Shown here in pieces: positions 2,672 through 33,479 of a DNA stretch of 33,479 bases. The position numbers and the translations under genes were made by a program. The DNA comes from a virus: IMG/VR virus record IMGVR_UViG_3300029825_000030, positions 1 through 33,479 of that record, one strand, 5' to 3'. Each line of letters opens with the position of its first letter. The stretch's first letter is position 1. The notes beneath the pieces were generated by a model. It made no database searches, was not told where the DNA came from, and worked only from the letters and a program-made list of their open reading frames with translations.

Positions 2672-4824
2672 ATTCTCTTCTCCACATTGTCTTTCCGCTG
2701 CGTCCGGAGGAGCGATACCAGGTCAGGCCACTCCGTCCCGAGCGTCAGCGTTAGTTTCTCGCCCTCACGGGCGTACTCTTCGGTGATCGCGACGATCCGG
2801 GCGTCCATCGCGGCGATGTCGGGATACTCGACGTGGACGATATCGCCGAGGTCGAAATCCTCGCCGTAGCGATACGACGCCGTCCGAATGTACTCCACTT
2901 CCAGCGTCGTCGTGTCCCCGTCCTCTGCGAGTTTCTCCGCACCCCGCCGCTCTAGTTCTGCCTCCGTCGCAAGGTCGCGGGCGTCGACGAACCGTTCCCG
3001 GCGGGCGAGTCCGATCAGGCCGTCCCCCGTCCCGACATCGGCCACCGCTCGCGCTGCTGCCTCGCCCTGTCCCGCGACCACCGCGACCGAGGGGGCGAGC
3101 CCGGTGGACTCGTTGTAACCCTTGATCGTGCAGTTGCCGAGCGCTGGACTGAGTTTGACAGAGCCGGAGCGGTCGGCGCCCTGAACCACCTCGAAGTAGA
3201 GCCGCCGATCGTCCCACGACCATCGGCCGCGATACCCGAGCCCGGACACGGCACAGATAGATTCGAGGAGGTCGGCGAGCACGTCGAACCGCGCCTTCTG
3301 TGCCGTGGTGCCCCCGCGCCCGTCGTCGGTGGGGGAGAGCGCGAGGAACGGCACGATCCGCGCGAGGTCGGCGGGTTGGATGGCGTTGACGTCGACGTAG
3401 TGCCGCATCACCGTTTCCGCCGCTCCGGTCTGCTCGTCGTAGCCGGTGCCGGTGCTGACCCCGTGCAGGCACAGCCGGTCGCCGAGGATGCCGATGATCT
3501 CCCGCCCGGCCACTGTCCACTGCTCCGAGGGGCGGCCGGAGGTGTCGACGCTGATCTGCCGAGTCTCGATGAGCCCGAGCCGGTCTTCGCCGTTGCGCCG
3601 GAAATGCACGAGACGGCCGGGGATAAACTCTTTCGCCGCCGGGAGGTAGCGGTTGATCTGTGCTTTCCACGCGCCGGGGCGGCGGTAGCGCCGCGTCCAT
3701 GAGAGGTAGTCGTAGGCGTCGGCGTATCCGGCGAGGGTCAGCGGGGCGCCGGGGTCGCTGTAGACGATCAGCTCGTCCCGGAGCGCGGCGTTCGTGGCGG
3801 CGATCCAGGCAGGGGAGCGGGGGGTGGAGGAGATCGAAACGAGTGCCAGATTACAGTCTAAAAATAACCCGGCGCCTGCTCTGGAGCAGAGATACGTCGG
3901 AACCGCTCCGCTGCTCGATATACCCGTACTGCCCGGCGCAACAGTGCCGACGCCCCCGTCATAGTAGAGGTATGATGCAGCAGCCTGTTGGTCGAGTACC
4001 CCCCAGACATCATGCCACGCCCCGGCATAATCGGGACGGTACTCCGCGCAGATGATATCTCCGACGCCAAAGAACCGTAGGGCCCCATCACCCATACTCG
4101 CCAGCTGATATACCCCTGCGCCCGCCCAAACCCCATGTTCGAGGATCAGGCGCTCGCTCGCGACAGTTCGATCGGTGCGGAATAATGTTTGGACCGAGAA
4201 ACTCTTCCCCCCCATATCAAGAGTGGACGATGCGGGGATAACTCCGTAATCATCCACCCCATCATACGAGTAGCACGCCCCGAGCGGCCCGGTCGTCAGC
4301 GTCGCCCCGTAGATCGTCGCATGGTTGCCGTTCGGCGACGAGTCCAGCAGCAGCCCGCCGGAGGGTTTCATCCACACGCCCGCGTAGCCGTTCGTCCACA
4401 CCTGCTGCGCCGCCGGTTCTCCGGTATCCCCGACATACCCCGTCATCTCGGCGTGCAGCGGATCATAATAGAGATACAGGTGTGTGTCTTCACCGGGATT
4501 GATCCGGGGCACTCGCACCCAGAGATACGCCGTCTGTGTGGCCGCGCTCCACTCCTTGATCTCGACGTAGCACGGCGTCAGCCCGTCGCCTGCGGTGATG
4601 CAGATGCGTTTCCGGTTCGCATCAGAACCGAGCGCCGTAAACACTTTCGAGACGTCGGCGGCGGTCTTGCCGGAGGAGCCGGAGAGTTTGACCATCGCGG
4701 GGAAGTTCTCCAGCACTCCGGTCACGCTCCCGGCGGGGATGGTGAGCAGGATCGGCTCGTTCGCCCATCCCGGCAGCCGGCCGGCCTGTATCTCGTAGAT
4801 GCTGAGAGGATAGGGGTTACTCAC
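2668..4824 (-). CDS. Large tail-tip protein: DUF2341-like N-domain, LamG/concanavalin-like lectin domain and Gp37-like (ReqiPepy6) C-terminal domain
   Basis: 718 aa. DUF2341-like signature: ENFPAMVKL...YVEIKEW...YLWVRVPRI...LYLYYDP. LamG-like signature: DSSPNGNHATIYGA...YDGVDDYGVIP...FSVQTLF. Gp37-like C-terminus: RFVDARD...YGEDFDLGDIVHVEYPD. It sits after Dit. Confidence 0.7.
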   Translation of the reverse strand: MSNPYPLSIYEIQAGRLPGWANEPILLTIPAGSVTGVLENFPAMVKLSGSSGKTAADVSKVFTALGSDANRKRICITAGDGLTPCYVEIKEWSAATQTAYLWVRVPRINPGEDTHLYLYYDPLHAEMTGYVGDTGEPAAQQVWTNGYAGVWMKPSGGLLLDSSPNGNHATIYGATLTTGPLGACYSYDGVDDYGVIPASSTLDMGGKSFSVQTLFRTDRTVASERLILEHGVWAGAGVYQLASMGDGALRFFGVGDIICAEYRPDYAGAWHDVWGVLDQQAAASYLYYDGGVGTVAPGSTGISSSGAVPTYLCSRAGAGLFLDCNLALVSISSTPRSPAWIAATNAALRDELIVYSDPGAPLTLAGYADAYDYLSWTRRYRRPGAWKAQINRYLPAAKEFIPGRLVHFRRNGEDRLGLIETRQISVDTSGRPSEQWTVAGREIIGILGDRLCLHGVSTGTGYDEQTGAAETVMRHYVDVNAIQPADLARIVPFLALSPTDDGRGGTTAQKARFDVLADLLESICAVSGLGYRGRWSWDDRRLYFEVVQGADRSGSVKLSPALGNCTIKGYNESTGLAPSVAVVAGQGEAAARAVADVGTGDGLIGLARRERFVDARDLATEAELERRGAEKLAEDGDTTTLEVEYIRTASYRYGEDFDLGDIVHVEYPDIAAMDARIVAITEEYAREGEKLTLTLGTEWPDLVSLLRTQRKDNVEKRI

Positions 4825-8380: not shown

Positions 8381-8981
8381 CTATCACCTCGTTTTATCCG
8401 GGTGCCGAAGGCCTGTTCGATCGCCGCCGCGTCCGGTGCGTCGGCGGGCGCCTGGGCAGCGCTGTGTGGCGTTGCCGGGGCGGGATCGAGCCGATACGTC
8501 ATTTCCGTCGCGTAGGCGCCATACATCAGGAGTTGCGCCCACGATAGGCGATCGAGGCAGTAGTCCGGCGTCCACCCGTAGATCCGGCAGAGGCGGGCGA
8601 CGATCCGGCCTGCCTCGATTACGGGTTTTTTACCTCCCCCTCCTTGTCACCCTTGTCCCCGCCACCCCACCGGCGGAACGCCTGCGCGATAACGACCTGT
8701 GTCAGCCCTGCGAGCTGCGGCCGGGTGAGGTTGGCCATCAGCCACTCGTAGGTAATCTTGGGGTTGGATATGTGGCAGATATCTGCGATCGCCATGACCA
8801 TCTCGCCGTCAGGGATTTTGTCAAACCCGCCGTGTTCCTGCGTCGCCTGCGTCAGGGTCAGCGTGCCGCGAGCAGGAACGATCGTGAGATCGATCTCCTC
8901 AATCTCGCTGCCGTTGCCGATGCGGACGATCACTGGTTTCGGCGAAAGGGTGGAGAGGTCGATGATCTCGACCATCGTCAC
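8377..8981 (-). CDS. Tail assembly chaperone G-T fusion made by a programmed -1 frameshift at A_AAA_AAC (8625-8631)
   Basis: I translated the -1 frame by hand from the heptamer. It stays open for 83 codons (KKPVIEAGRIVARLCRIYGWTPDYCLDRLSWAQLLMYGAYATEM...IKRGDR*). It stops at TGA 8377-8379, which overlaps the tape-measure ATG. This frame has no start codon of its own. Confidence 0.6.
8619..8981 (-). CDS. Tail assembly chaperone (gpG-like)
   Basis: 120 aa, located between the major tail protein and the tape measure. It ends ...GEVKNP* with a slippery A_AAA_AAC heptamer just before the stop. Confidence 0.75.
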   Translation of the reverse strand: MTMVEIIDLSTLSPKPVIVRIGNGSEIEEIDLTIVPARGTLTLTQATQEHGGFDKIPDGEMVMAIADICHISNPKITYEWLMANLTRPQLAGLTQVVIAQAFRRWGGGDKGDKEGEVKNP

Positions 8982-20952: not shown

Positions 20953-23361
20953 TCAGAGACCTCCCTGTACCGATCCCGCTGTAGCATCTTCTTCCTCTTC
21001 GATAGCACTCTTTATGCGTATACCCGTCCAGCACATGGCCCCGCCGAGCTTCCTCTCACCGAACCCTCGCTCCCGGAGATACTTGATCACTGCCCGGTTG
21101 CTGACCGGTTTTTCGCCCTCGTCCTCGCACCACTTGAGGTAGATCTTATAGAGCACCGTCCGCTCGATCGTTCCCATCGGGTCCGTCTTCATCTCCTGCG
21201 CCAGGAACCGCCCGACCATATCACTCTCCGACCGGAACCGAGCCGTGGCCGCGAGCACCTTCTCCGGTGGCGCGAGACGGCAGTCGTTCTCCTGATACCG
21301 CCGGAGCCCTTCCAAGCACCAGTTCAGGATACCGGCTCCCTCCGCTTCCAGCCGTTCGAGGATGGCCGGGTCGCGCTTCCCCTCGGGGATAGTCACAGTG
21401 AAGGGCAGCAACCACAACCGCCGCCAGATCCCCTCGTCCGTGCCCCGGATGCGGGGCTCGTGATTCGTCGCGAGGAAGATCTTCGCCCCGGGCCGGAACT
21501 GGAACTCATTTTCATAGAGCCGCCGGACGGTGATCGCGTCGTCGCCGGTGATCTGCTTGACCACACTCTCTGCGAGGGATGCCCGGCTCTCCCCCTCTGA
21601 TGCCGTGACGAGCCGGGCGCCGTGCAGCCGCGCCAGGTCCGAGCGCGGGCCGTCGTTCCGGCGCACCATCAGGCTCTCGGCGGCGATATTGACTGCGTAA
21701 TCGCCCCATACTCGCGCCAGTGCCCCGATGGTAACGCTCTTACCGTTCTTCCCGATGCCGTAGAGGATCGCCATAATCTGCTCAGGGTTCTCCTGGAGCA
21801 GCGAATACCCACAGAGCTCCTGGAACCCCTCGATATAGGCTGTGTCCTCGCCGAACACTAGGTCTAGGTGCGCGAGCCACGTGGGGCACGCCGCCGCGGG
21901 ATCGTAGGCAACCCCGGCCTGCTTCGTCAGGAGATCCTCCCGCCGCGGCTGCCGGAACGTCAAGGTATCGAGCTCCAGCGTCCCGTTCCGACAGTTGAGC
22001 AACGTAGGATGTGCGTCGAACTCCTCCGGCGTCACCGCCACGGCAGGGCAGGCGCAGGTGATCATCGCCTTGAGCCGTGAGAGCATCCCCGACGAGAGCG
22101 CCCACTTCCCGACCTTCTCGCGCCGGTCGTCCGTGGTCGCGGACGCCTCGATGTGGATCGTCCTCGCGACCCGCTTGGCGAGCGCAAGCATCCGGCAGGT
22201 CTCGTCGCGCTCCCACCGCGAGCCGTCCCAGAGGTACCACGCATCAAATGTCTTGCAGAACCGGATCGAGTCCCGGTACTGCGCGACGAGCCGATCCCCG
22301 TTGCCGTCGTCGGTGCAGGGGTATTCCAGCCCGATCGCCGGCTCAGGGTCCGGGAGGCTTACTCCGACATCGATCGCCCACTGTGCGACCAGAGCGTCCC
22401 GCTGCCTCCGGATCCCATCCTGTTCGGCGGCATACGCCCGGAGAACCTTCTCGGACCGGGCCGCCTCCTTGAGCCCTGCCCGGACCGTCTCGACGGGCTG
22501 CTCGCAGAACCACGACGGGAACTTCGCACCGTAGTGCTCCAGGCGCTGAACGACCCTGGTGAACTCATCGGAGCCGGGCTCCAGCCGGTCGATCTCCGCG
22601 TCGGGGATGACCGGCTCGGTTACGGTAGATACTCTATCTCTACGTCCCAATTCGGGCGCGGCGTTGGCATCGCGCTCCACCGTTTCCGGAGGAGGACTGC
22701 GCCCAATCCTCGACGGATCCTGCGCAGTCTCAATCGCGATATCTCCGGCGGATACCACACTCGCCACACATTCCTCCGCCACCACGGGCGCCTCGCTCTG
22801 TACGTCGCCATTCAGATCAGTCCCTTCCGCCGCAGTCTCAGCCGGTGCCGCCTCCGGGCGTTCTCCCGGGCCAGTCTGCGGACCTTCGGCGTCCGCCTCC
22901 TGGGCTGCCATGGTAACCGCCGCATCCGGACCGCCATCAACGGTCGCCCCGTCGGGTAATACCGTCGCCGAAGCACCCGATACTTTGGATACCTCCGATA
23001 CCTCTCGATCATCACACAACATCTCCCATAACTGCCCTATCTGCCCTGCCGCGATCGACCCGGTCCTCCGGGCCTCGATCGCCGCCTGCACCTCCGGGGG
23101 CCACTGATCCGGGCGACCCCCATCGACCAGGACCTCAATCCCGTCCGCAGTCCGACGATCTCTCGGAGGTAGCCAGTCAGTCCGCAGCGGCACATATGCC
23201 ACGTCGTCCAGGAGGATCGTGATACCTGTCCACTCCTGGACTCGGGCGAGGATCTCCTGCCGCGCATGATAGGTGGCCGCCGGAAATGGTTTCTGCAGGA
23301 CCCCCCGGGCAGCATGGAACGACGATGACTTGCATGGAATTTTCAGAACGATAGAACTCAA
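20953..23361 (-). CDS. Replicative helicase/primase-like protein, D5_N plus P4/D5-family SF3 helicase domain
   Basis: 802 aa with Walker A LYGIGKNGKS, Walker B LVTASE and a P4-family C-terminal pattern (FRPGAKIFLATNHEPRIRGTDEGIWRRL). The N-terminal ~330 aa include a long acidic/Ala/Pro-rich, probably disordered stretch. No recognisable AEP or Toprim motif was seen. Confidence 0.85.
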   Translation of the reverse strand: MSSIVLKIPCKSSSFHAARGVLQKPFPAATYHARQEILARVQEWTGITILLDDVAYVPLRTDWLPPRDRRTADGIEVLVDGGRPDQWPPEVQAAIEARRTGSIAAGQIGQLWEMLCDDREVSEVSKVSGASATVLPDGATVDGGPDAAVTMAAQEADAEGPQTGPGERPEAAPAETAAEGTDLNGDVQSEAPVVAEECVASVVSAGDIAIETAQDPSRIGRSPPPETVERDANAAPELGRRDRVSTVTEPVIPDAEIDRLEPGSDEFTRVVQRLEHYGAKFPSWFCEQPVETVRAGLKEAARSEKVLRAYAAEQDGIRRQRDALVAQWAIDVGVSLPDPEPAIGLEYPCTDDGNGDRLVAQYRDSIRFCKTFDAWYLWDGSRWERDETCRMLALAKRVARTIHIEASATTDDRREKVGKWALSSGMLSRLKAMITCACPAVAVTPEEFDAHPTLLNCRNGTLELDTLTFRQPRREDLLTKQAGVAYDPAAACPTWLAHLDLVFGEDTAYIEGFQELCGYSLLQENPEQIMAILYGIGKNGKSVTIGALARVWGDYAVNIAAESLMVRRNDGPRSDLARLHGARLVTASEGESRASLAESVVKQITGDDAITVRRLYENEFQFRPGAKIFLATNHEPRIRGTDEGIWRRLWLLPFTVTIPEGKRDPAILERLEAEGAGILNWCLEGLRRYQENDCRLAPPEKVLAATARFRSESDMVGRFLAQEMKTDPMGTIERTVLYKIYLKWCEDEGEKPVSNRAVIKYLRERGFGERKLGGAMCWTGIRIKSAIEEEEDATAGSVQGGL

Positions 23362-23766: not shown

Positions 23767-24647
23767 GCGACCACCGCCTCGGGTGCGAATTCTGCGAGAT
23801 CGCACGACCAATAGATCTGCGGACGATTCAGCCGAGCGAGGCGTTTTGTCCACGCGGTGCGCCTGTACTGCATGATGAACACCCCCGCGCCGATCTCTCT
23901 CAGGATCTCACATCGGCGGTAATCCTCTTCGGGCGACGAATCGAACCCGACGAGGACGTAGATACTCACCTCGTGCCGGGTGCGGATCCCGGCGTCCTTG
24001 AGCATCTGGATGCCTCGCCTGATCGCTTCCTCATCTTGGATCCGGTCAAAGGCAAAGTGGAGCTGCCCCGACCACTCGAGGTCTGCGAGCCTCCCGGCGA
24101 TCTCCTCATCGAGGATACGGATGTCCATCCCCTGGATAGCATTGTACTTCAGGCCGTTTTCGAGGATGTAATCGGTATTCTCGAAAAACCATGCCTTATC
24201 TGCGTAGGCGTTGTTATCCAGGCAGATGACCGAATCGAACCGCTCATCGTGCCATTCACGGATGTGCTGCGCCCGGCGGAACCGCCCCTCCTTCGTCGGG
24301 GCGATGCAGAACGCGCACCTCCTGATACACCCTCGCGTCGTGAACCCGAGTGAGTAGGTGATGGCGGGATACAGGTCATAGTCAGGTTTCATCCGCTCGA
24401 TCTCGTCCGGCAAGGTCGCCGTGAGATCATATCCCGATCCCCCGGCCACGATCTCCGCGCCGGGGAACATGAACCGGAGTGCGGTCGCTTTCCATCGGTT
24501 CTGCGTGAACACGACTGATGCGACGACGCGATCGGGTTCGGTGACATCGAACCCGACCTCATCCCCGCGCGCCTTATAGTAGGCGCTGATCTTCATCAGG
24601 GCGAGGTTTGGGATCTTCGAATCCACATCTACGAGGCGGACTTTCAT
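23763..24647 (-). CDS. Radical SAM enzyme with a B12-binding-like N-terminal domain (class B-like)
   Basis: 294 aa with the CxxxCxxC cluster motif GCIRRCAFC. The N-terminus KIPNLALMKISAYYKARGDEV resembles the cobalamin-binding-domain region of class B rSAM enzymes. Confidence 0.75.
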   Translation of the reverse strand: MKVRLVDVDSKIPNLALMKISAYYKARGDEVGFDVTEPDRVVASVVFTQNRWKATALRFMFPGAEIVAGGSGYDLTATLPDEIERMKPDYDLYPAITYSLGFTTRGCIRRCAFCIAPTKEGRFRRAQHIREWHDERFDSVICLDNNAYADKAWFFENTDYILENGLKYNAIQGMDIRILDEEIAGRLADLEWSGQLHFAFDRIQDEEAIRRGIQMLKDAGIRTRHEVSIYVLVGFDSSPEEDYRRCEILREIGAGVFIMQYRRTAWTKRLARLNRPQIYWSCDLAEFAPEAVVA

Positions 24648-31385: not shown

Positions 31386-31530
31386 TTTCTCTCTCCTTGA
31401 TTCTGATCAGACCCTCGGATTTCAGGTAATCGCCGATTTTCAGCGGGAATCCGAGGGTGCGTTCGTATTCCGATTCAACAGCCCTGATAGCCTCCGGGCT
31501 GACTTCAAGCGGTTCTGGCTGGCAACTCAT
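31378..31530 (-). CDS. Hypothetical 50-aa protein, below the ORF-track cut-off
   Basis: Hand translation: MSCQPEPLEVSPEAIRAVESEYERTLGFPLKIGDYLKSEGLIRIKERENE*. It fills the gap between two genes. Confidence 0.4.
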   Translation of the reverse strand: MSCQPEPLEVSPEAIRAVESEYERTLGFPLKIGDYLKSEGLIRIKERENE

Positions 31531-31648
31531 AGCCAATCTCCTTCGCGAGTACTTTCCGGACCATGTCCGTGCGGCTCTCGTAGTCCCGCAATTTCCATGC
31601 TCTGTCGAGCACCTTTACCATATCAGGAGGCAGATAGACGTTCACCAT
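31505..31648 (-). CDS. Ribbon-helix-helix (CopG/Arc-like) regulator, first gene of the minus-strand early operon
   Basis: 47 aa from MVNVYLPPDMVKVLDRAWKLRDYESRTDMVRKVLAKEI (ATG 31646-31648), preceded by GGAGGG. The track's N-terminal extension runs into AT-rich promoter DNA. Confidence 0.65.
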   Translation of the reverse strand: MVNVYLPPDMVKVLDRAWKLRDYESRTDMVRKVLAKEIGYELPARTA

Positions 31649-31721: not shown

Positions 31722-31744
31722 ATTGCTATTCTTAGTATTACGTG

Positions 31745-31756
31745 CATTATAGATAT
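31745..31756 (+). promoter_or_regulatory. TATA-like box (cattatagatat) about 25-30 nt upstream of the first CRISPR-repeat-like unit
   Basis: TTATAGATA at 31747-31755. The G-run at 31779 is at the expected TSS distance. The AT-rich ~130 bp upstream resembles a CRISPR leader. Confidence 0.35.
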
Positions 31757-31780
31757 TAGTAATATTACGGTGTTTTATGG

Positions 31781-31812
31781 GGCCGCACCCCCGCGGGTGC
31801 GTGGATTGAAAT
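31781..31812 (+). CRISPR. Solitary CRISPR repeat-like unit, type I-C-like (32 nt): GGCCGCACCCCCGCGGGTGCGTGGATTGAAAT
   Basis: 7-bp stem (31784-90 / 31795-801), a 4-nt loop and an 11-nt tail TGGATTGAAAT. The 3' 18 nt GGGTGCGTGGATTGAAAT match canonical I-C repeats as I remember them (GTCGCxCxC....GGGTGCGTGGATTGAAAT/C). Confidence 0.6.
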
Positions 31813-31831
31813 CATACTCTATTGACTCAGG

Positions 31832-31860
31832 ACAATTCCCCGGCCTCTGGGGATGAACCG
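31832..31860 (+). CRISPR. CRISPR repeat-like unit, type I-E-like (29 nt): ACAATTCCCCGGCCTCTGGGGATGAACCG
   Basis: Shows I-E architecture: TTCCCC stem, small loop, GGGGATGAACCG 3' end. Compare E. coli GAGTTCCCCGCGCCAGCGGGGATAAACCG and the many GC-rich I-E repeats ending GGGGATGAACCG. Confidence 0.55.
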
Positions 31861-31866
31861 ACATTG

Positions 31867-31884
31867 TACAACGAAAACGTTGTA
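31867..31884 (+). repeat. Hairpin tacaacg-aaaa-cgttgta inside the 31-nt inter-repeat segment
   Basis: Perfect 7-bp stem with a 4-nt loop. I could not assign it to any repeat family. Confidence 0.6.
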
Positions 31885-31891
31885 AGGTGCG

Positions 31892-31920
31892 GTCGTTCCC
31901 CTCTCTGAGGGGATCCCTCG
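31892..31920 (+). CRISPR. CRISPR repeat-like unit, divergent I-E-like (29 nt): GTCGTTCCCCTCTCTGAGGGGATCCCTCG
   Basis: 7-bp stem TCCCCTC/GAGGGGA with a 3-nt loop. It shares TTCCCC...GGGGAT...CG with unit 31832-31860 (16/29 identical), and the stem differences are compensatory. Confidence 0.45.
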
Positions 31921-31927
31921 ATTTTAG
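31921..31927 (+). terminator. Oligo-T tract (attttag) after the last hairpin; possible archaeal terminator
   Basis: TTTT at 31922-31925 immediately 3' of a stable stem-loop. Confidence 0.3.
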
Positions 31928-32026: not shown

Positions 32027-32554
32027 ATGCCTGAAAATTTTGTAGGGAAGATTGAGGACGGCGCGATGGTCGAGGCCCCTATCTACGAGGCCCACTCTCG
32101 CGGCAAGAACTGGATGGCGACGATCGAGGCAGACCCGGCAGCCCCCGGGGGCCTGGCGCGAGAGTTTGTCAGGAACGGGCGCGGCCGGTATCTCTATATC
32201 GTCGGCCCGGAGGTCGTCGGCAAGGCGGTCGAGATCGCTGCTGACTACACAAATAGCAGCGGCAAGCGGCGCCCGCACCGCTGGTATGGGGTGGTGCGGA
32301 ACGTGACCGACCGGGAGATCGTAATTGACCGCCACGAGACTTCGGAGCAGGCGATCAGGGCTGCACGGTCTCGCGCGGCGTTCGACGCGCAGATCCGCGA
32401 CCACTTTGAACATATCAAGCCCGATACCGGAGATGTCTCTGACTACTCCGTCCACGACACCGTTGCCCCCGACCGGGTGGCGCTGGAGGAGGAGCGGGCG
32501 CGGCTGCTCGCCCGGGTCGCGGAGATCGACGCGGTGCTCGGGGGTGGGGAGTAA
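32027..32554 (+). CDS. Hypothetical protein (175 aa from MPENFVGK)
   Basis: The track ORF starts at GTG 32015. I prefer the ATG at 32027 because AGAGGTGA lies 8 nt upstream. There is a C-terminal coiled-coil (ALEEERARLLARVAEIDAVL). Confidence 0.6.
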   Translation: MPENFVGKIEDGAMVEAPIYEAHSRGKNWMATIEADPAAPGGLAREFVRNGRGRYLYIVGPEVVGKAVEIAADYTNSSGKRRPHRWYGVVRNVTDREIVIDRHETSEQAIRAARSRAAFDAQIRDHFEHIKPDTGDVSDYSVHDTVAPDRVALEEERARLLARVAEIDAVLGGGE

Positions 32555-32767: not shown

Positions 32768-32779
32768 GCGGGGATTGAA

Positions 32780-33232
32780 ATGGGGTACAAAACTATCACC
32801 ACTACGCACGCGCGGTACACTGCGCATGTATCGACGTCAGACAAACTGATTGGGCTCATGAACGCACCGTATGAGAAAACCCTCACGGTGCACGACGGGG
32901 GCCTGTGGCGGGTCGAGGATTGGCTCTCTGGGGGAGTCAAGGAGATCAGCCCCGAGACCACGGATGCCGCGATCGAGTCGCTCGCCGACATGATCGTCGA
33001 CGAGGCTGCGGCTGAAAACGTGGTGGTTGTCGCGGGGCGCGAGGCCGTCCGGGCCTACCTCCTCGACTATCGACAGGAGCTCCGCGACGCGATCCCGGAG
33101 CCGGACTGCTACCAGATCAGAGGATACGTCGTGCTGGAGGGCACCGCTAAAAATTTCGGGGGCACGGCGCACGTCACGGTGCCGCGGAAATACTCCGGTA
33201 AGCGGGTCAAGATTGTGGTGCTGGAGCCCTGA
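32780..33232 (+). CDS. Protein with a C-terminal AbrB/SpoVT-like DUF2080-type domain (the archaeal transposase-associated family)
   Basis: 150 aa. The C-terminal IRGYVVLEGTAKNFGGTAHVTVPRKYSGKRVKIVVLEP matches the DUF2080 pattern as I remember it (..V.pfGnSa.V.vPk.w.GkkVkvvv). That family is normally a ~50-aa protein encoded just upstream of archaeal tnpB, as here. Confidence 0.55.
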   Translation: MGYKTITTTHARYTAHVSTSDKLIGLMNAPYEKTLTVHDGGLWRVEDWLSGGVKEISPETTDAAIESLADMIVDEAAAENVVVVAGREAVRAYLLDYRQELRDAIPEPDCYQIRGYVVLEGTAKNFGGTAHVTVPRKYSGKRVKIVVLEP

Positions 33233-33316: not shown

Positions 33317-33336
33317 CCCACGACTTTAGTCGTGGG
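33317..33336 (+). repeat. IS left-end subterminal hairpin cccacgac-ttta-gtcgtggg
   Basis: Perfect 8-bp stem with a 4-nt ttta loop, in context aagCCCACGACtttaGTCGTGGGag. It has the same design as the hairpin at 1120-1139. Confidence 0.75.
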
Positions 33337-33356
33337 AGGAATGCCGTCATAAGAAT

Positions 33357-33367
33357 CTATTTATACC
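33357..33367 (+). promoter_or_regulatory. TATA-like box (ctatttatacc) about 30 nt upstream of the tnpB ATG
   Basis: AT-rich TTTATAC motif at 33360-33366, with the ATG at 33393 (equivalent to position 13). Confidence 0.35.
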
Positions 33368-33380
33368 TATAGAGCCAAGT

Positions 33381-33479
33381 ATTCTATATACTATGCTACT
33401 AACGGTAAAGGTGAAGTTACTGACGTCGCAGGCGCAACACGACGACCTCCTGAAGACAATGGAGCGCTTCAACGAAGCC
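33381..33479. repeat. Terminal overlap identical to 1-99. It contains a duplicate of the tnpB start (ATG at 33393) and is not a second gene copy.
   Basis: Same 99 nt as the window start. Confidence 0.95.

Follow-up and report, generated by a model that had tools for sequence, protein, structure and literature searches.

The genome of a methanogen virus contains a short intergenic cassette that is probably a virus-encoded RNA anti-CRISPR locus of the Racr/Cracr kind, whose crRNA-like units mimic repeats from two type I systems of the host. We put the probability of this reading at roughly 60%. The window (the whole stretch of 33,479 nucleotides that was analysed, IMG/VR record IMGVR_UViG_3300029825_000030) is the complete circular genome of a Blf4-like Methanoculleus siphovirus, a tailed virus. 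Positions 31782-31920 contain three CRISPR-repeat-like hairpin units and a fourth hairpin within a 31-nt spacer-like segment.

Layout and setting of the cassette

The cassette lies in a 378-bp divergent intergenic region bounded by the start of an RHH gene at 31648 (minus strand) and an ATG at 32027 (plus strand). The features of this region and its flank are listed here.

31505-31648, minus strand: gene of the RHH (CopG-like) neighbour, 47 amino acids
31722-31769, plus strand: AT-rich upstream region with two 21-nt direct repeats, ATTGCTATTCTTAGTATTACG and ATAGATATTAGTAATATTACG (family D1)
31782-31812, plus strand: unit A, I-C repeat mimic, GCCGCACCC-CCGC-GGGTGCG-TGGATTGAAAT
31813-31831, plus strand: pseudo-spacer 1, the spacer-like 19 nt after the I-C handle, CATACTCTATTGACTCAGG
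31832-31860, plus strand: unit B, I-E-like repeat, TTCCCCGG-CCT-CTGGGGATGAACCG, also written ACAATTCCCCGG-CCT-CTGGGGATGAACCG
31861-31891, plus strand: pseudo-spacer 2, the 31 nt between B and C, with an internal hairpin, ACATTGTACAACGAAAACGTTGTAAGGTGCG
31892-31920, plus strand: unit C, terminal I-E-like repeat, TTCCCCTC-TCT-GAGGGGATCCCTCG, also written GTCGTTCCCCTC-TCT-GAGGGGATCCCTCG
31921-31927, plus strand: T-run ATTTTAG, directly after the last hairpin

The preliminary description had reported four stem-loops here, and their coordinates, sequences and folding were confirmed. When folded as RNA, positions 31779-31927 formed exactly four hairpins at -62.1 kcal/mol (z = -4.36), and none of 200 shuffled sequences did as well; the opposite strand gave a folding z of -3.15. 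It is this predicted structure that suggests expression of the cassette as a small RNA. No Rfam family reached its gathering score anywhere in the window, weak matches to CRISPR-DR58 and DR9 being the only ones returned, and the Rfam negatives were given little weight because a genuine I-C array (L056) was also missed by Rfam. Comparison of the intergenic region with the phage database returned chance matches only. No conserved ORF explains the units, as had been stated earlier: individual units are deleted, swapped or interrupted in relatives.

An AT-rich, TATA-like stretch (about 31746-31768) and a TTTT tract (31922-31925), both part of the preliminary description, are present in the sequence. 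The TATA-like motifs ATTATAGATATTAG and TAATATTA lie 14-35 nt before unit A. The AT-rich upstream region is a candidate promoter of the archaeal kind and may also act as an operator for the adjacent RHH protein, which matched PF01402 (E = 1e-3, just under the gathering score) and phrog_4738, 'transcriptional repressor' (6e-4), and which by analogy to Aca proteins is a possible regulator of the cassette. The T-run is a candidate archaeal oligo-T terminator. Other AT-rich TATA-like stretches lie at a similar distance before the first unit in the relatives L016, L018 and L150, and a T4-T5 run also follows the last hairpin in L016, L155, L149, L018/L152 and L145.

Scanning of the 30 ORFs of the window found no cas genes, in agreement with the preliminary description, and no integrase; the only recombinases were RecT and a TnpB. 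The window contains no tRNA or tmRNA, and the idea of a tRNA/att site was dropped for this reason. Blf4 is lytic and itself lacks the cassette; I-U is the sole CRISPR-Cas system that the Blf4 paper gives for its host.

Unit A and the type I-C system of Methanoculleus

Type I-C repeats were recognized by a length of about 32 nt, a GC-rich 7-bp stem-loop and an 11-nt single-stranded tail ending ATTGAAA(C/T), and unit A fits this description. Its 7-bp stem pairs CGCACCC (31784-31790) with GGGTGCG (31795-31801) around the 4-nt loop CCGC, and its 11-nt 3' tail TGGATTGAAAT (31802-31812) would become the 5' handle of the downstream RNA. Stem, loop and tail had been described correctly, whereas the length of 32 nt had not, the repeat-equivalent part being 31 nt (31782-31812). 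The identity of the last 18 nt to I-C repeats, as given in the preliminary description, was verified and extends to 20 nt, found exactly in real arrays.

Aligned with the Methanoculleus I-C repeat GTCGCACCCTTCGCGGGTGCGTGGATTGAAAT, unit A is identical at 29 of 32 positions; the 7-bp stem and the 11-nt tail are identical, and the loop has 4 nt as against 5 nt in the Methanoculleus repeat. The repeat matched to this degree occurs in three Methanoculleus arrays (two of sp. MH98A and one of M. methanifontis) and in a Methanomicrobiales MAG array. In shuffled sequences 0 matches to the unit A pattern were expected, even with three mismatches allowed. Linkage of the repeat family to I-C cas genes was seen in Streptococcus thoraltensis (L049), where Cas5c, Cas8c/Csd1, Cas7/Csd2, Cas4, Cas1c and Cas2 are encoded directly upstream of the array and all score above the NCBIfam cut-offs; the Methanoculleus array contigs end in arrays or stop short of cas genes.

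Unit A is solitary (the whole window has no other I-C-like repeat that forms a hairpin), and it has the attributes of a Racr or solitary repeat unit, being intergenic, on a mobile element, outside an array and with no cas genes. A second GATTGAAAT at window position 32773 overlaps a start codon, has no hairpin and fits chance.

Among the spacers of Methanoculleus I-C-family arrays, 28 of 173 match the virus family, and one Methanoculleus array spacer matches the window at 34 of 34 positions (21174-21207). A TTC PAM precedes 25 of the 41 protospacers of Methanoculleus spacers in the window, Blf4 and relatives. These matches and PAMs indicate that this virus family is a genuine target of the system with the I-C repeat.

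Units B and C and the type I-E system

Type I-E repeats were defined as 28-29 nt with a TTCCCC-stem-loop-GGGGAT hairpin followed by the 8-nt handle AT(A/G)AACCG. Unit B has both parts: a 7-bp hairpin, including one G-U pair, with a 3-nt loop, and the 8-nt I-E handle ATGAACCG. Unit C retains the I-E hairpin; its 3' tail ATCCCTCG is degenerate and does not fit the I-E handle. The I-E layout previously ascribed to both units therefore stands for B in full and for C in the hairpin part only. Unit C gave a weak match to CRISPR-DR58 in Rfam (18 bits, E = 0.91).

B and C are 74% identical at a spacing of 60 nt. Together with the intervening 31 nt they have the geometry of a one-spacer I-E mini-array, with a period of 60 nt as against 61 nt in the real array of the host contig described below. 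They are a repeat, a spacer and a repeat, and not the independent solitary mimics of the preliminary description. The pattern TTCCCC-N7-GGGGAT occurs twice in the window, 60 nt apart, as against 0.32 occurrences expected, and 4 of 100 shuffles reach two; for TTCCCC-N7-GGGGATGAACCG, in which the handle is added (18 fixed bases), about 1e-6 chance matches are estimated in the window. The handle in B and the hairpin in C, which are the parts needed by a single crRNA, are the sole conserved parts. An intact B handle, 31 nt and a C hairpin at a 60-nt period constitute the Cracr layout, and B, the 31 nt and C are read here as one putative crRNA-like gene with a pseudo-repeat, a pseudo-spacer and a degenerate terminal repeat.

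The host sequence with which these units were compared is a Methanoculleus chromosomal contig, L147, assigned through named homologues of 83-84% identity and synteny and originating from the same assembly (UOOK01) as the cassette-bearing viral contigs L149 and L155. L147 contains a 39-repeat I-E array with a 61-nt period; the contig yielded no cas genes, and none of the 39 spacers matched this virus family. A mini-array follows 470 nt after the I-E array. Its first repeat has the stem of unit B and differs from the main repeat, with the handle kept. Another three repeats with spacers of ordinary appearance belong to this element. No toxin gene or targeted promoter was identified in L147, and the element may simply be a second small array. 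Unit B agrees with the main I-E repeat at 23 of 29 positions and with the first pseudo-repeat of the mini-array at 25 of 30 (26 of 30 for the L016 version of B). A metagenome scan for CCCCGG...CCGGGG found this stem in single units only, except for the small L147/L151 mini-array headed by a B-like unit; a long host array with the stem of unit B was not among the results. A scan of IMG/VR for the main L147 repeat gave nothing beyond additional solitary units and mini-arrays, all on unrelated contigs, and a literature search for I-E in Methanoculleus returned nothing useful.

The expectation that the units match real repeats far better than chance was borne out by A (29/32, I-C) and by B (23/29, L147 I-E). 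The host genus likewise has arrays of both subtypes, namely the I-C-family arrays with TTC-PAM spacers against the virus family and the I-E array on L147. No case of both I-C and I-E in a single host was seen among the loci examined. In A and in B/C alike, the viral loop has 1 nt fewer than its host counterpart, which might impair processing by Cas5c or Cas6e.

Pseudo-spacers and searches for their targets

Pseudo-spacer 1 is identical in the window, L014, L148, L154, L155 and L149, and diverges after nt 11-12 in L016 and L145; every relative of this lineage retains its first 11 nt, and later positions are variable. The relatives agree in the first 11-15 nt of pseudo-spacer 2 and differ beyond them. 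The fourth hairpin of the cassette, TACAACG-AAAA-CGTTGTA at 31867-31884, lies inside this second segment. In a Blf4-like relative, L150, unit B is accompanied by a pseudo-spacer that matches the host pseudo-spacer of L147, with 11 nt exact and 16 of the first 17 nt identical.

Candidate targets were sought as PAM plus seed. None was found in L056, L110, L142, L147 or L156-L160; these loci contain no cas operon promoter, and the search accordingly had little power. Pseudo-spacer 2 returned only self matches in IMG/VR, even with every sixth position free, and no protospacer in Blf4, six relatives, the window or the Methanoculleus loci examined. For pseudo-spacer 1, no protospacer with a TTC PAM was found in IMG/VR or in the Methanoculleus loci examined, and only chance 17-mers were returned. 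The guide (Cracr) step is speculative for this virus because the Methanoculleus loci examined yielded no host crRNA-like RNA containing the window's own pseudo-spacers.

Variation among relatives

The cassette recurs in at least eight distinct related viral contigs, with different promoters and different unit combinations. The natural variants comprise A+B+C, A+B only, B+C only and IS-interrupted forms. Hairpins are kept by compensatory changes in the relatives and loops vary; the compensatory changes in the stem of unit C are TC/GA, AC/GT, AU/GU and GU/AC. Unit C is lacking in L014, L148 and L154, and an IS605/TnpB element is inserted within pseudo-spacer 2 in L149; the cassette is therefore partly dispensable in some lineages. 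A hairpin in L148, L154 and L149, CCCAYGAC-TWWA-GTCGTGGG, was considered as a third kind of mimic and rejected, being the end hairpin of IS605/TnpB and not a CRISPR mimic. This end hairpin adjoins tnpB in the window too (33317-33336), and two of them bracket the tnpB homologue inserted in pseudo-spacer 2 of L149.

Proposed mechanism and alternative explanations

We infer every step of the proposed mechanism from the sequence features observed. The cassette would be transcribed from its own AT-rich promoter into a non-coding RNA of about 140-150 nt, on the plus strand, ending at the T-run after unit C. Host Cas5c would recognize unit A, whose stem and 11-nt tail are those of the host I-C repeat, and host Cas6e would recognize the hairpins of B and C. 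One guide-like RNA would carry the intact I-C 5' handle UGGAUUGAAAU followed by CAUACUCUAUU..., and a second, I-E-type crRNA-like RNA would consist of the 8-nt handle AUGAACCG, the 31-nt pseudo-spacer and the C hairpin. Both RNAs would load into I-C and I-E Cascade and compete with genuine anti-viral crRNAs for Cas proteins, as Racr-like decoys, and the conserved 11-nt PAM-proximal seeds would probably steer Cascade, in the manner of Cracrs and with no cleavage, to a host promoter (of cas or of a CRISPR-guarding toxin gene). In Methanoculleus strains with I-C and/or I-E, CRISPR interference would as a result act less strongly on the virus. The single transcript of about 150 nt, the sequestration of Cas proteins and the multi-system counter-defence put forward in the preliminary description would all belong to this scheme. 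Its most far-reaching form is tentative, and we consider it somewhat more apt to fail than to hold: one viral transcript would multiplex crRNA-like RNAs against two type I subtypes, including a chimera in which an I-C 5' handle and a 19-nt segment with a seed are joined to a 3' hairpin of the I-E type, and would disarm or reprogramme the I-C and I-E Cascades in any Methanoculleus strain that the virus enters.

The hairpins might act purely as decoys, as strict Racrs do, sequestering Cas5c/Cas7 and Cas6e/Cas7 in dead-end subcomplexes, with no guide function in the sequences between the units. RacrIC1 and RacrIE1/2 act so in bacteria (PMC10651486), unit A stands alone with no second I-C repeat, and loops 1 nt shorter than those of the host could favour binding without productive maturation. 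However, A and B keep the complete, unaltered 5'-handle-coding tail required of a loaded guide, conservation between the units is highest in the 11 nt that follow each handle, and the stem of B is that of the host mini-array pseudo-repeat and not that of the main-array repeat. A pure decoy overlaps with the RNA anti-CRISPR reading preferred here, the sole difference being whether guide function exists, and we regard it as rather unlikely. The repeat-spacer-repeat geometry, the 60-nt period and the intact I-E 5' handle on B also agree with a virus-borne mini-CRISPR array, in which a crRNA from B, the spacer and C (perhaps also from A and its downstream segment) would turn host I-E (or I-C) Cascade on a rival virus or plasmid and so bring about superinfection exclusion, as in SPV1/SPV2. 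Mini-arrays of archaeal viruses are documented (PMC6858448; for Bathyarchaeia viruses, PMC10848311), and I-E mini-arrays are present on the other IMG/VR contigs L015, L017, L020 and L021. This explanation is unlikely: the 31-nt spacer has no protospacer in IMG/VR (every sixth base free), Blf4, six relatives or the window, the A-proximal segment has no PAM-plus-seed target beyond chance 17-mers, and B and C are merely 74% alike. Moreover, the 'spacer' is not swapped among variants; its divergence increases gradually away from a conserved 5' end, and it has a conserved internal hairpin, unlike an acquired spacer.

Functionless debris, in the form of host CRISPR array fragments acquired through homologous or illegitimate recombination and carried in an intergenic region that tolerates them, would account for the way homology ends at the edges of units (between the window and L016 at the 5' edge of A, between the window and L014 immediately after B). 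The virus encodes RecT, and the region tolerates an IS605 insertion and the loss of C or A in some lineages. We nonetheless consider such debris very unlikely, given that compensatory substitutions maintain the hairpins while loops drift, that the handles are intact and that the units of the two systems always have the same orientation and order. In several genomic contexts the cassette is always just downstream of an AT-rich promoter-like stretch with a T-run at its end, and the stem of B is absent from all long arrays found. Hardly credible, in our judgement, is a function at the DNA level, with the repeat copies serving as homology or recognition sites for recombination with, or integration into, the CRISPR arrays of the host, or as a mimic of leader and repeat that draws Cas1-Cas2 away. 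Solitary repeat units were reportedly proposed as recombination handles by Faure et al. in 2019. An AT-rich leader-like stretch does precede unit A, and a Bathyarchaeia virus mini-array has been proposed to recruit host adaptation (PMC10848311). Against this, no integrase was found (RecT and TnpB only) and Blf4 is lytic, the homology covers merely 20-31 nt, and no host array examined is interrupted by viral DNA. There is also no sign of spacer turnover, since the same pseudo-spacers recur across relatives.

Implications and comparison with known systems

RNA anti-CRISPRs and viral crRNA-like regulators have so far been demonstrated in bacteria only, and the cassette would extend them to tailed viruses of methanogens, which are relevant to biogas production and the carbon cycle. 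In the most far-reaching form of the scheme it would be the first RNA anti-CRISPR in a methanogen virus and also the first Cracr/Racr array to span subtypes, and Methanoculleus I-E loci would carry CreA/CreR-type regulatory mini-arrays copied by viruses, as L147 suggests; in this respect the cassette hints that an archaeal I-E locus may have a regulator of the CreA/CreR kind. A single cassette would be shown to accommodate units directed at different subtypes, which fits a genus with I-C, I-E or I-U/I-G strains. The cassette also offers a possible reason why these viruses may escape Methanoculleus arrays in spite of the many matching spacers there. The shuffled natural variants constitute a ready dissection series for which parts matter.

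The Racrs RacrIF1, RacrIC1 and RacrIE1/2 are RNA anti-CRISPRs from solitary repeat units, and I-C and I-E are both validated Racr targets in phages (Camara-Wilpert et al. 2023, PMC10651486). The cassette resembles them as an intergenic, cas-less viral repeat mimic that matches a subtype present in the host genus, and unit A is a solitary I-C repeat copy, as is RacrIC1. In contrast to Racrs, the cassette stacks three units of two subtypes, its B and C form a repeat-spacer-repeat and are not solitary, its host is an archaeon (a methanogen), it is known from sequence alone, and no known acr gene was identified next to it.

Mini-CRISPR arrays of archaeal viruses are known from SPV1/SPV2 (Medvedeva et al. 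2019, PMC6858448) and the Bathyarchaeia Chiyouvirus (PMC10848311). Shared with these are a cas-less archaeal virus, host-like repeats flanking a spacer-length segment and reliance on host Cas proteins. Within the arrays of SPV1/SPV2 and of Chiyouvirus the repeats are identical, whereas those of the cassette are unlike each other; SPV1/SPV2 spacers match related viruses, whereas the cassette has no protospacer in the data searched and its pseudo-spacer is conserved and not exchanged. Host CreA/CreR (CreTA, cas autoregulation) is resembled by the L147 mini-array, which adjoins the I-E array and begins with a variant repeat with the handle kept. Viral unit B is closer to this first repeat than to the main repeat; unlike CreA/CreR, the cassette copy sits on a virus.

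Cracr RNAs and arrays are viral crRNA-like regulators that mimic host CreA/CreR, are multiplexed for I-C, I-E and I-F, and are, as arrays, experimentally established in phages (Liu et al., bioRxiv 10.1101/2024.10.29.618823). The cassette has the same succession of pseudo-repeat, pseudo-spacer and pseudo-repeat, including an intact 5' handle and a degenerate terminal repeat, and its units would be multiplexed in one proposed transcription unit. Cassette and Cracr pseudo-repeats share a 1-nt loop deletion, which in a Cracr pseudo-repeat led to inefficient processing (10.1101/2024.10.29.618823). Cracrs are recognized by at least 9 PAM-proximal pseudo-spacer nt matching host CreA/CreR (10.1101/2024.10.29.618823), and the relative L150 has such a match, at 16 of 17 nt, to the L147 host mini-array beside the I-E array. 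The window's own pseudo-spacers differ in having no CreA/CreR counterpart or promoter target in the loci examined. Cracr hosts are Pseudomonadota, Bacillota and Actinomycetota only, and Cracr arrays 'always target different variants of the same type'; the cassette instead joins an I-C unit to an I-E unit. The novelty originally claimed for the locus is thus narrowed by Racrs (PMC10651486) and Cracr arrays (10.1101/2024.10.29.618823), both kinds being already described in phages. What is new is the cross-subtype combination and the archaeal virus, since two subtypes per locus and an archaeal host are unreported in these studies.

Viral genome and layout of the cassette

The window holds a viral genome in full, about 33.4 kb and either closed into a circle or terminally redundant: its ends overlap as a 99-nt direct repeat (1-99 and 33381-33479). 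The same sequence was also found as a 33,452-nt contig in a fermentation (biogas) metagenome (ENA ERZ922853). Parts of the replication module share 86% nucleotide identity with Methanoculleus virus Blf4, and the gene content includes capsid, portal, terminase, siphovirus tail proteins, a D5-type primase-helicase, a C5 methylase, an RNA ligase and RecT. As the preliminary description had stated, no cas gene was found (0 of 30 ORFs scanned); the sole RNA-guided-nuclease relative among these ORFs is the TnpB of an IS605-type element. This IS200/IS605-type element lies at 33317-33479 joined to 1-1146 across the circular junction. Its 377-aa TnpB matches PF07282 (2.6e-24), PF01385 and phrog_506 (2e-48), and a perfect end hairpin, CCCACGAC-TTTA-GTCGTGGG, precedes the gene at 33317-33336.

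The repeat-like cassette sits in a 378-bp gap between two divergent genes.

Features of the cassette and its flanks
Start 31648, minus strand: 47-aa ribbon-helix-helix (RHH) gene, weak RHH_1 match
31782-31812: unit A, GCCGCACCC-CCGC-GGGTGCG-TGGATTGAAAT
31813-31831: segment 1 (19 nt), CATACTCTATTGACTCAGG
31832-31860: unit B, ACAATTCCCCGG-CCT-CTGGGGATGAACCG
31861-31891: segment 2 (31 nt), including the hairpin TACAACG-AAAA-CGTTGTA
31892-31920: unit C, GTCGTTCCCCTC-TCT-GAGGGGATCCCTCG
31921-31927: T-run, ATTTTAG
ATG 32027: 175-aa gene, function not assigned, other flank of the gap

Folding of the plus strand gave the four hairpins and nothing else notable (-62.1 kcal/mol, z = -4.36, with 0 of 200 shuffles equally stable), and single units folded alone form 7 bp each with a loop of 3-4 nt. 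The coordinates and this fold confirm the divergent gap with four hairpins; the unit sequences are exactly as first described, except that only 31 nt of A, not 32, correspond to the repeat. No chance occurrence of the unit A pattern is expected. For the bare B/C core, 0.32 copies would be expected by chance and two are present; the chance is far lower with the handle included.

Between the RHH gene and unit A, the AT-rich stretch contains two 21-nt direct repeats (31722-31769; 76% identical, 27 nt apart) that look like putative operator half-sites for the RHH protein. A promoter-like block (aatagatatattgtaagaggtgaa) directly follows the cassette in the window and its relatives; the same block (tatatagatagtgcactaatagtatattgtaagaggtgaaa) stands before two successive small genes in Blf4 (24130-24180 and 24550-24600). 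A second GATTGAAAT in the window (32773-32781; about 0.26 copies of this 9-mer expected by chance on both strands of the window) overlaps the start codon of a DUF2080 gene (ATG 32780), with no hairpin before it.

Unit A and the host type I-C system

Long arrays of about 67-nt period contain the last 20 nt of unit A without a mismatch, which bears out the I-C identity proposed for its 3' end. A genome-wide scan with stem and tail fixed and the loop free matched more than 100 arrays, mostly in Bacillota; it also found 54 repeats in Methanoculleus sp. MH98A, at least 30 in M. methanifontis and 51 in a Methanomicrobiales MAG. A second such array in MH98A adjoins its phosphoglycerate dehydrogenase gene, as does the M. 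methanifontis array. The repeat family is type I-C; in Streptococcus thoraltensis an array of this family follows genes for Cas5c, Cas8c/Csd1, Cas7/Csd2, Cas4, Cas1c and Cas2. The Methanoculleus repeat (GTCGCACCCTTCGCGGGTGCGTGGATTGAAAT) and unit A are identical at 29/32 positions, including the 7-bp stem and the 11-nt tail, and the loop of A is one base shorter; by sequence, unit A is a near-copy of the I-C-family repeat of Methanoculleus.

Spacers of Methanoculleus target this virus family. The host I-C-type system thus attacks it: 28 of 173 spacers match the window, Blf4 or relatives and TTC, the I-C PAM, precedes the protospacer in 25 of 41 matches. The best match in the window is 34/34 (21174-21207), with eight further matches at 87-94%.

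Units B and C and a Methanoculleus type I-E locus

Unit B consists of an I-E hairpin (TTCCCC...GGGGAT) and an 8-nt handle, ATGAACCG, whereas unit C keeps the hairpin and ends in the tail ATCCCTCG. The I-E layout proposed for both units is therefore borne out for B and fails at the tail of C, which does not fit an I-E handle. The period from B to C is 60 nt, against 61 in real I-E arrays. For a single I-E crRNA, the upstream repeat must supply its handle and the downstream repeat its hairpin; it is precisely these parts, the handle of B and the hairpin of C, that are conserved here. The two units are type I-E-like and together would form one crRNA-like gene.

A metagenome scan for B (stem CCCCGG...CCGGGG plus handle) yielded no long array with this stem and only 11 single occurrences, two of them in host DNA (L147 and its duplicate, L151). 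L147 is Methanoculleus chromosome: proteins named Methanoculleus sp. share 83-84% identity with its DUF1538 protein, and its order of acyl-CoA synthetase, SDR, EncFtn-like, DUF1538 and P-II genes is that of a Methanoculleus contig without the CRISPR insertion. It carries the only I-E array known in Methanoculleus, with 39 repeats of GAGTTCCCCACATGCGTGGGGATGAACCG at a 61-nt period. About 470 nt after the degenerate last repeats of this main array lies a mini-array, made up of a first repeat TTTCCCCGGTCTTCCGGGGATGAACCG, a 32-nt spacer and three repeats CCGTTCCCCACGCGTGTGGGGATTCACAG. Unit B is nearer to the mini-array repeat (25-26/30) than to the main repeat (22-23/29). Real repeats were matched to A and B as first proposed, the tail of C excepted. 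None of the 39 spacers matches the window-family viral sequences compared; L147 and two module-bearing viral contigs come from the same assembly, UOOK01.

The mini-array occupies about 2883-3094 on the reverse strand (plus-strand 8660-8872). Its first repeat has a CCCCGG stem and a normal handle, and the three others have a CCCCAC stem and an odd handle, ATTCACAG; the first spacer is 19/22 identical to part of main-array spacer 25. The mini-array may be a regulator like CreA/CreR or a second small array.

The cassette in related viruses

At least eight distinct forms of the cassette were found on contigs tied by tblastx to the window or Blf4. Blf4 itself has neither A nor B/C; type I-U is the sole CRISPR-Cas system reported for its host, M. 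bourgensis (PMC8540584).

Forms of the cassette in relatives
L016: A+B+C, upstream region differs
L155: A+B+C, 3' half of segment 2 changed
L014: A+B alone, next promoter joined directly
L148 / L154: A+B, IS-end hairpin replaces C
L149: A absent; IS605/TnpB element within segment 2; C intact behind the element
L018 / L152: diverged A', then B', a different segment 2, C'; stem of A' shorter, weak Rfam CRISPR-DR9 match
L145: A''+B+C'
L150: B, another segment, C''; A absent

Across relatives the loops drift and the stems stay paired, the inner two pairs of C being U-A/C-G, A-U/C-G, A-U/U-G or G-C/U-A. The stem of B was fixed by the search pattern and is therefore uninformative on stem conservation. 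Within the lineage, the 11 nt that directly follow the I-C handle (CATACTCTATT) and those that follow the I-E handle (ACATTGTACAA), hereafter seeds, do not vary, and divergence sets in at positions further along. The segment of L150 starts with TGATACAGTTAGGGGGC and the host mini-array spacer of L147 with TGATACAGTTACGGGGC, identical over 11 nt and at 16 of the first 17 positions.

The IS-end hairpin of the window recurs within the cassettes of L149 (753-2286), L148 (192-211) and L154 (8258-8277). In L149 a tnpB homologue lies between two hairpin copies and interrupts the 31-nt segment 2 (the pseudo-spacer), while L148 and L154 retain one hairpin and have lost unit C. The cassette is thus a repeated IS605 insertion site in the virus family.

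The first unit of L018 (2924-2952, minus strand) and L152 reads GTGTCGCCC-TCCG-GGGCGTGGATTGAAAC and matches Rfam CRISPR-DR9 (GTAGCGCCC...GGGCGAGGATTGAAAC) at 25.5 bits (E = 0.065). We take DR9 to resemble repeats of type I-U/I-G, which is what has been reported for M. bourgensis; on that assumption, the system mimicked in the A slot may differ from virus to virus. Spacer 24 of the M. methanifontis I-C array (L142) matches the 3' end of unit C' and the T-rich tail of this cassette type (L018 2813-2836, L152 369-392) over 24/25 positions with one gap, of 35 nt. The match is weak because it has no TTC PAM; hosts might acquire spacers against the cassette itself.

IMG/VR contigs unrelated to the window (L005 3168-3199, L015, L017, L020, L021 and L163-L170) carry solitary I-C units (GTCGCACTCTTCGCGGGTGCGTGGATTGAAAT in L005) and solitary I-E units or mini-arrays of 2-4 repeats, in which some spacers are short, about 20 nt in the case of L015. 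They add to the known SRU/mini-array phenomenon.

Proposed function and alternatives

In the RNA anti-CRISPRs known as Racrs, a solitary mimic of a repeat captures Cas proteins; validated examples are RacrIC1 and RacrIE1/2 (PMC10651486). Cracrs are virus-borne versions of CreA/CreR, the crRNA-like regulators of the host. They are laid out as pseudo-repeat, pseudo-spacer and pseudo-repeat and frequently occur as stacked arrays. Besides competing for Cas proteins, they direct these to the promoters of cas or toxin genes by partial PAM-proximal pairing (preprint 10.1101/2024.10.29.618823). Because both precedents are experimentally grounded and fit, we consider the cassette to be probably an RNA anti-CRISPR locus (probability roughly 0.6). 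It would be transcribed, processed and loaded onto Cascade, with an effect on host immunity. Unit A would offer Cas5c a site and provide the downstream RNA with an I-C 5' handle; it could act as decoy, guide or both. Units B and C would give Cas6e sites and a complete I-E-type crRNA-like RNA. A pure decoy with no guide function is a sub-case of this explanation; for B-C we favour a Cracr-like guide component, because of the conserved seeds and the host/virus pair L147/L150. The window's own seeds found no target among the Methanoculleus loci examined.

A genuine mini-array aimed at competing viruses would share the repeat-spacer architecture, but this alternative is weakened by the lack of any protospacer for segments 1 or 2 in the sequences searched and by the manner in which segment 2 varies. 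Debris of recombination with host arrays would be consistent with the IS insertion and with the existence of lineages that have lost C or A, from which it follows that not every part of the cassette is indispensable; it is nevertheless unlikely, because of the compensatory changes, the intact handles and the constant order, orientation and promoter/T-run framing. A role at the DNA level, through integration into arrays or diversion of Cas1-Cas2, draws on the leader-like AT-rich stretch as its sole support.

Comparison with known systems

The novelty claimed in the preliminary description stands in part. Repeat mimicry against I-C and I-E and multiplexed viral crRNA-like arrays are already known (PMC10651486; 10.1101/2024.10.29.618823), as are mini-arrays in viruses of Sulfolobales (PMC6858448) and Bathyarchaeia (PMC10848311). 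The papers cited here on Racrs, Cracrs and archaeal-virus mini-arrays report neither units of two subtypes in one cassette, nor such a locus in a tailed methanogen virus, nor an archaeal I-E array accompanied by a CreA/CreR-like mini-array, for which that of L147 is a candidate. According to the Cracr preprint (10.1101/2024.10.29.618823), Cracrs encoded together are always directed at variants of one type, whereas the cassette of the window combines units of two subtypes.
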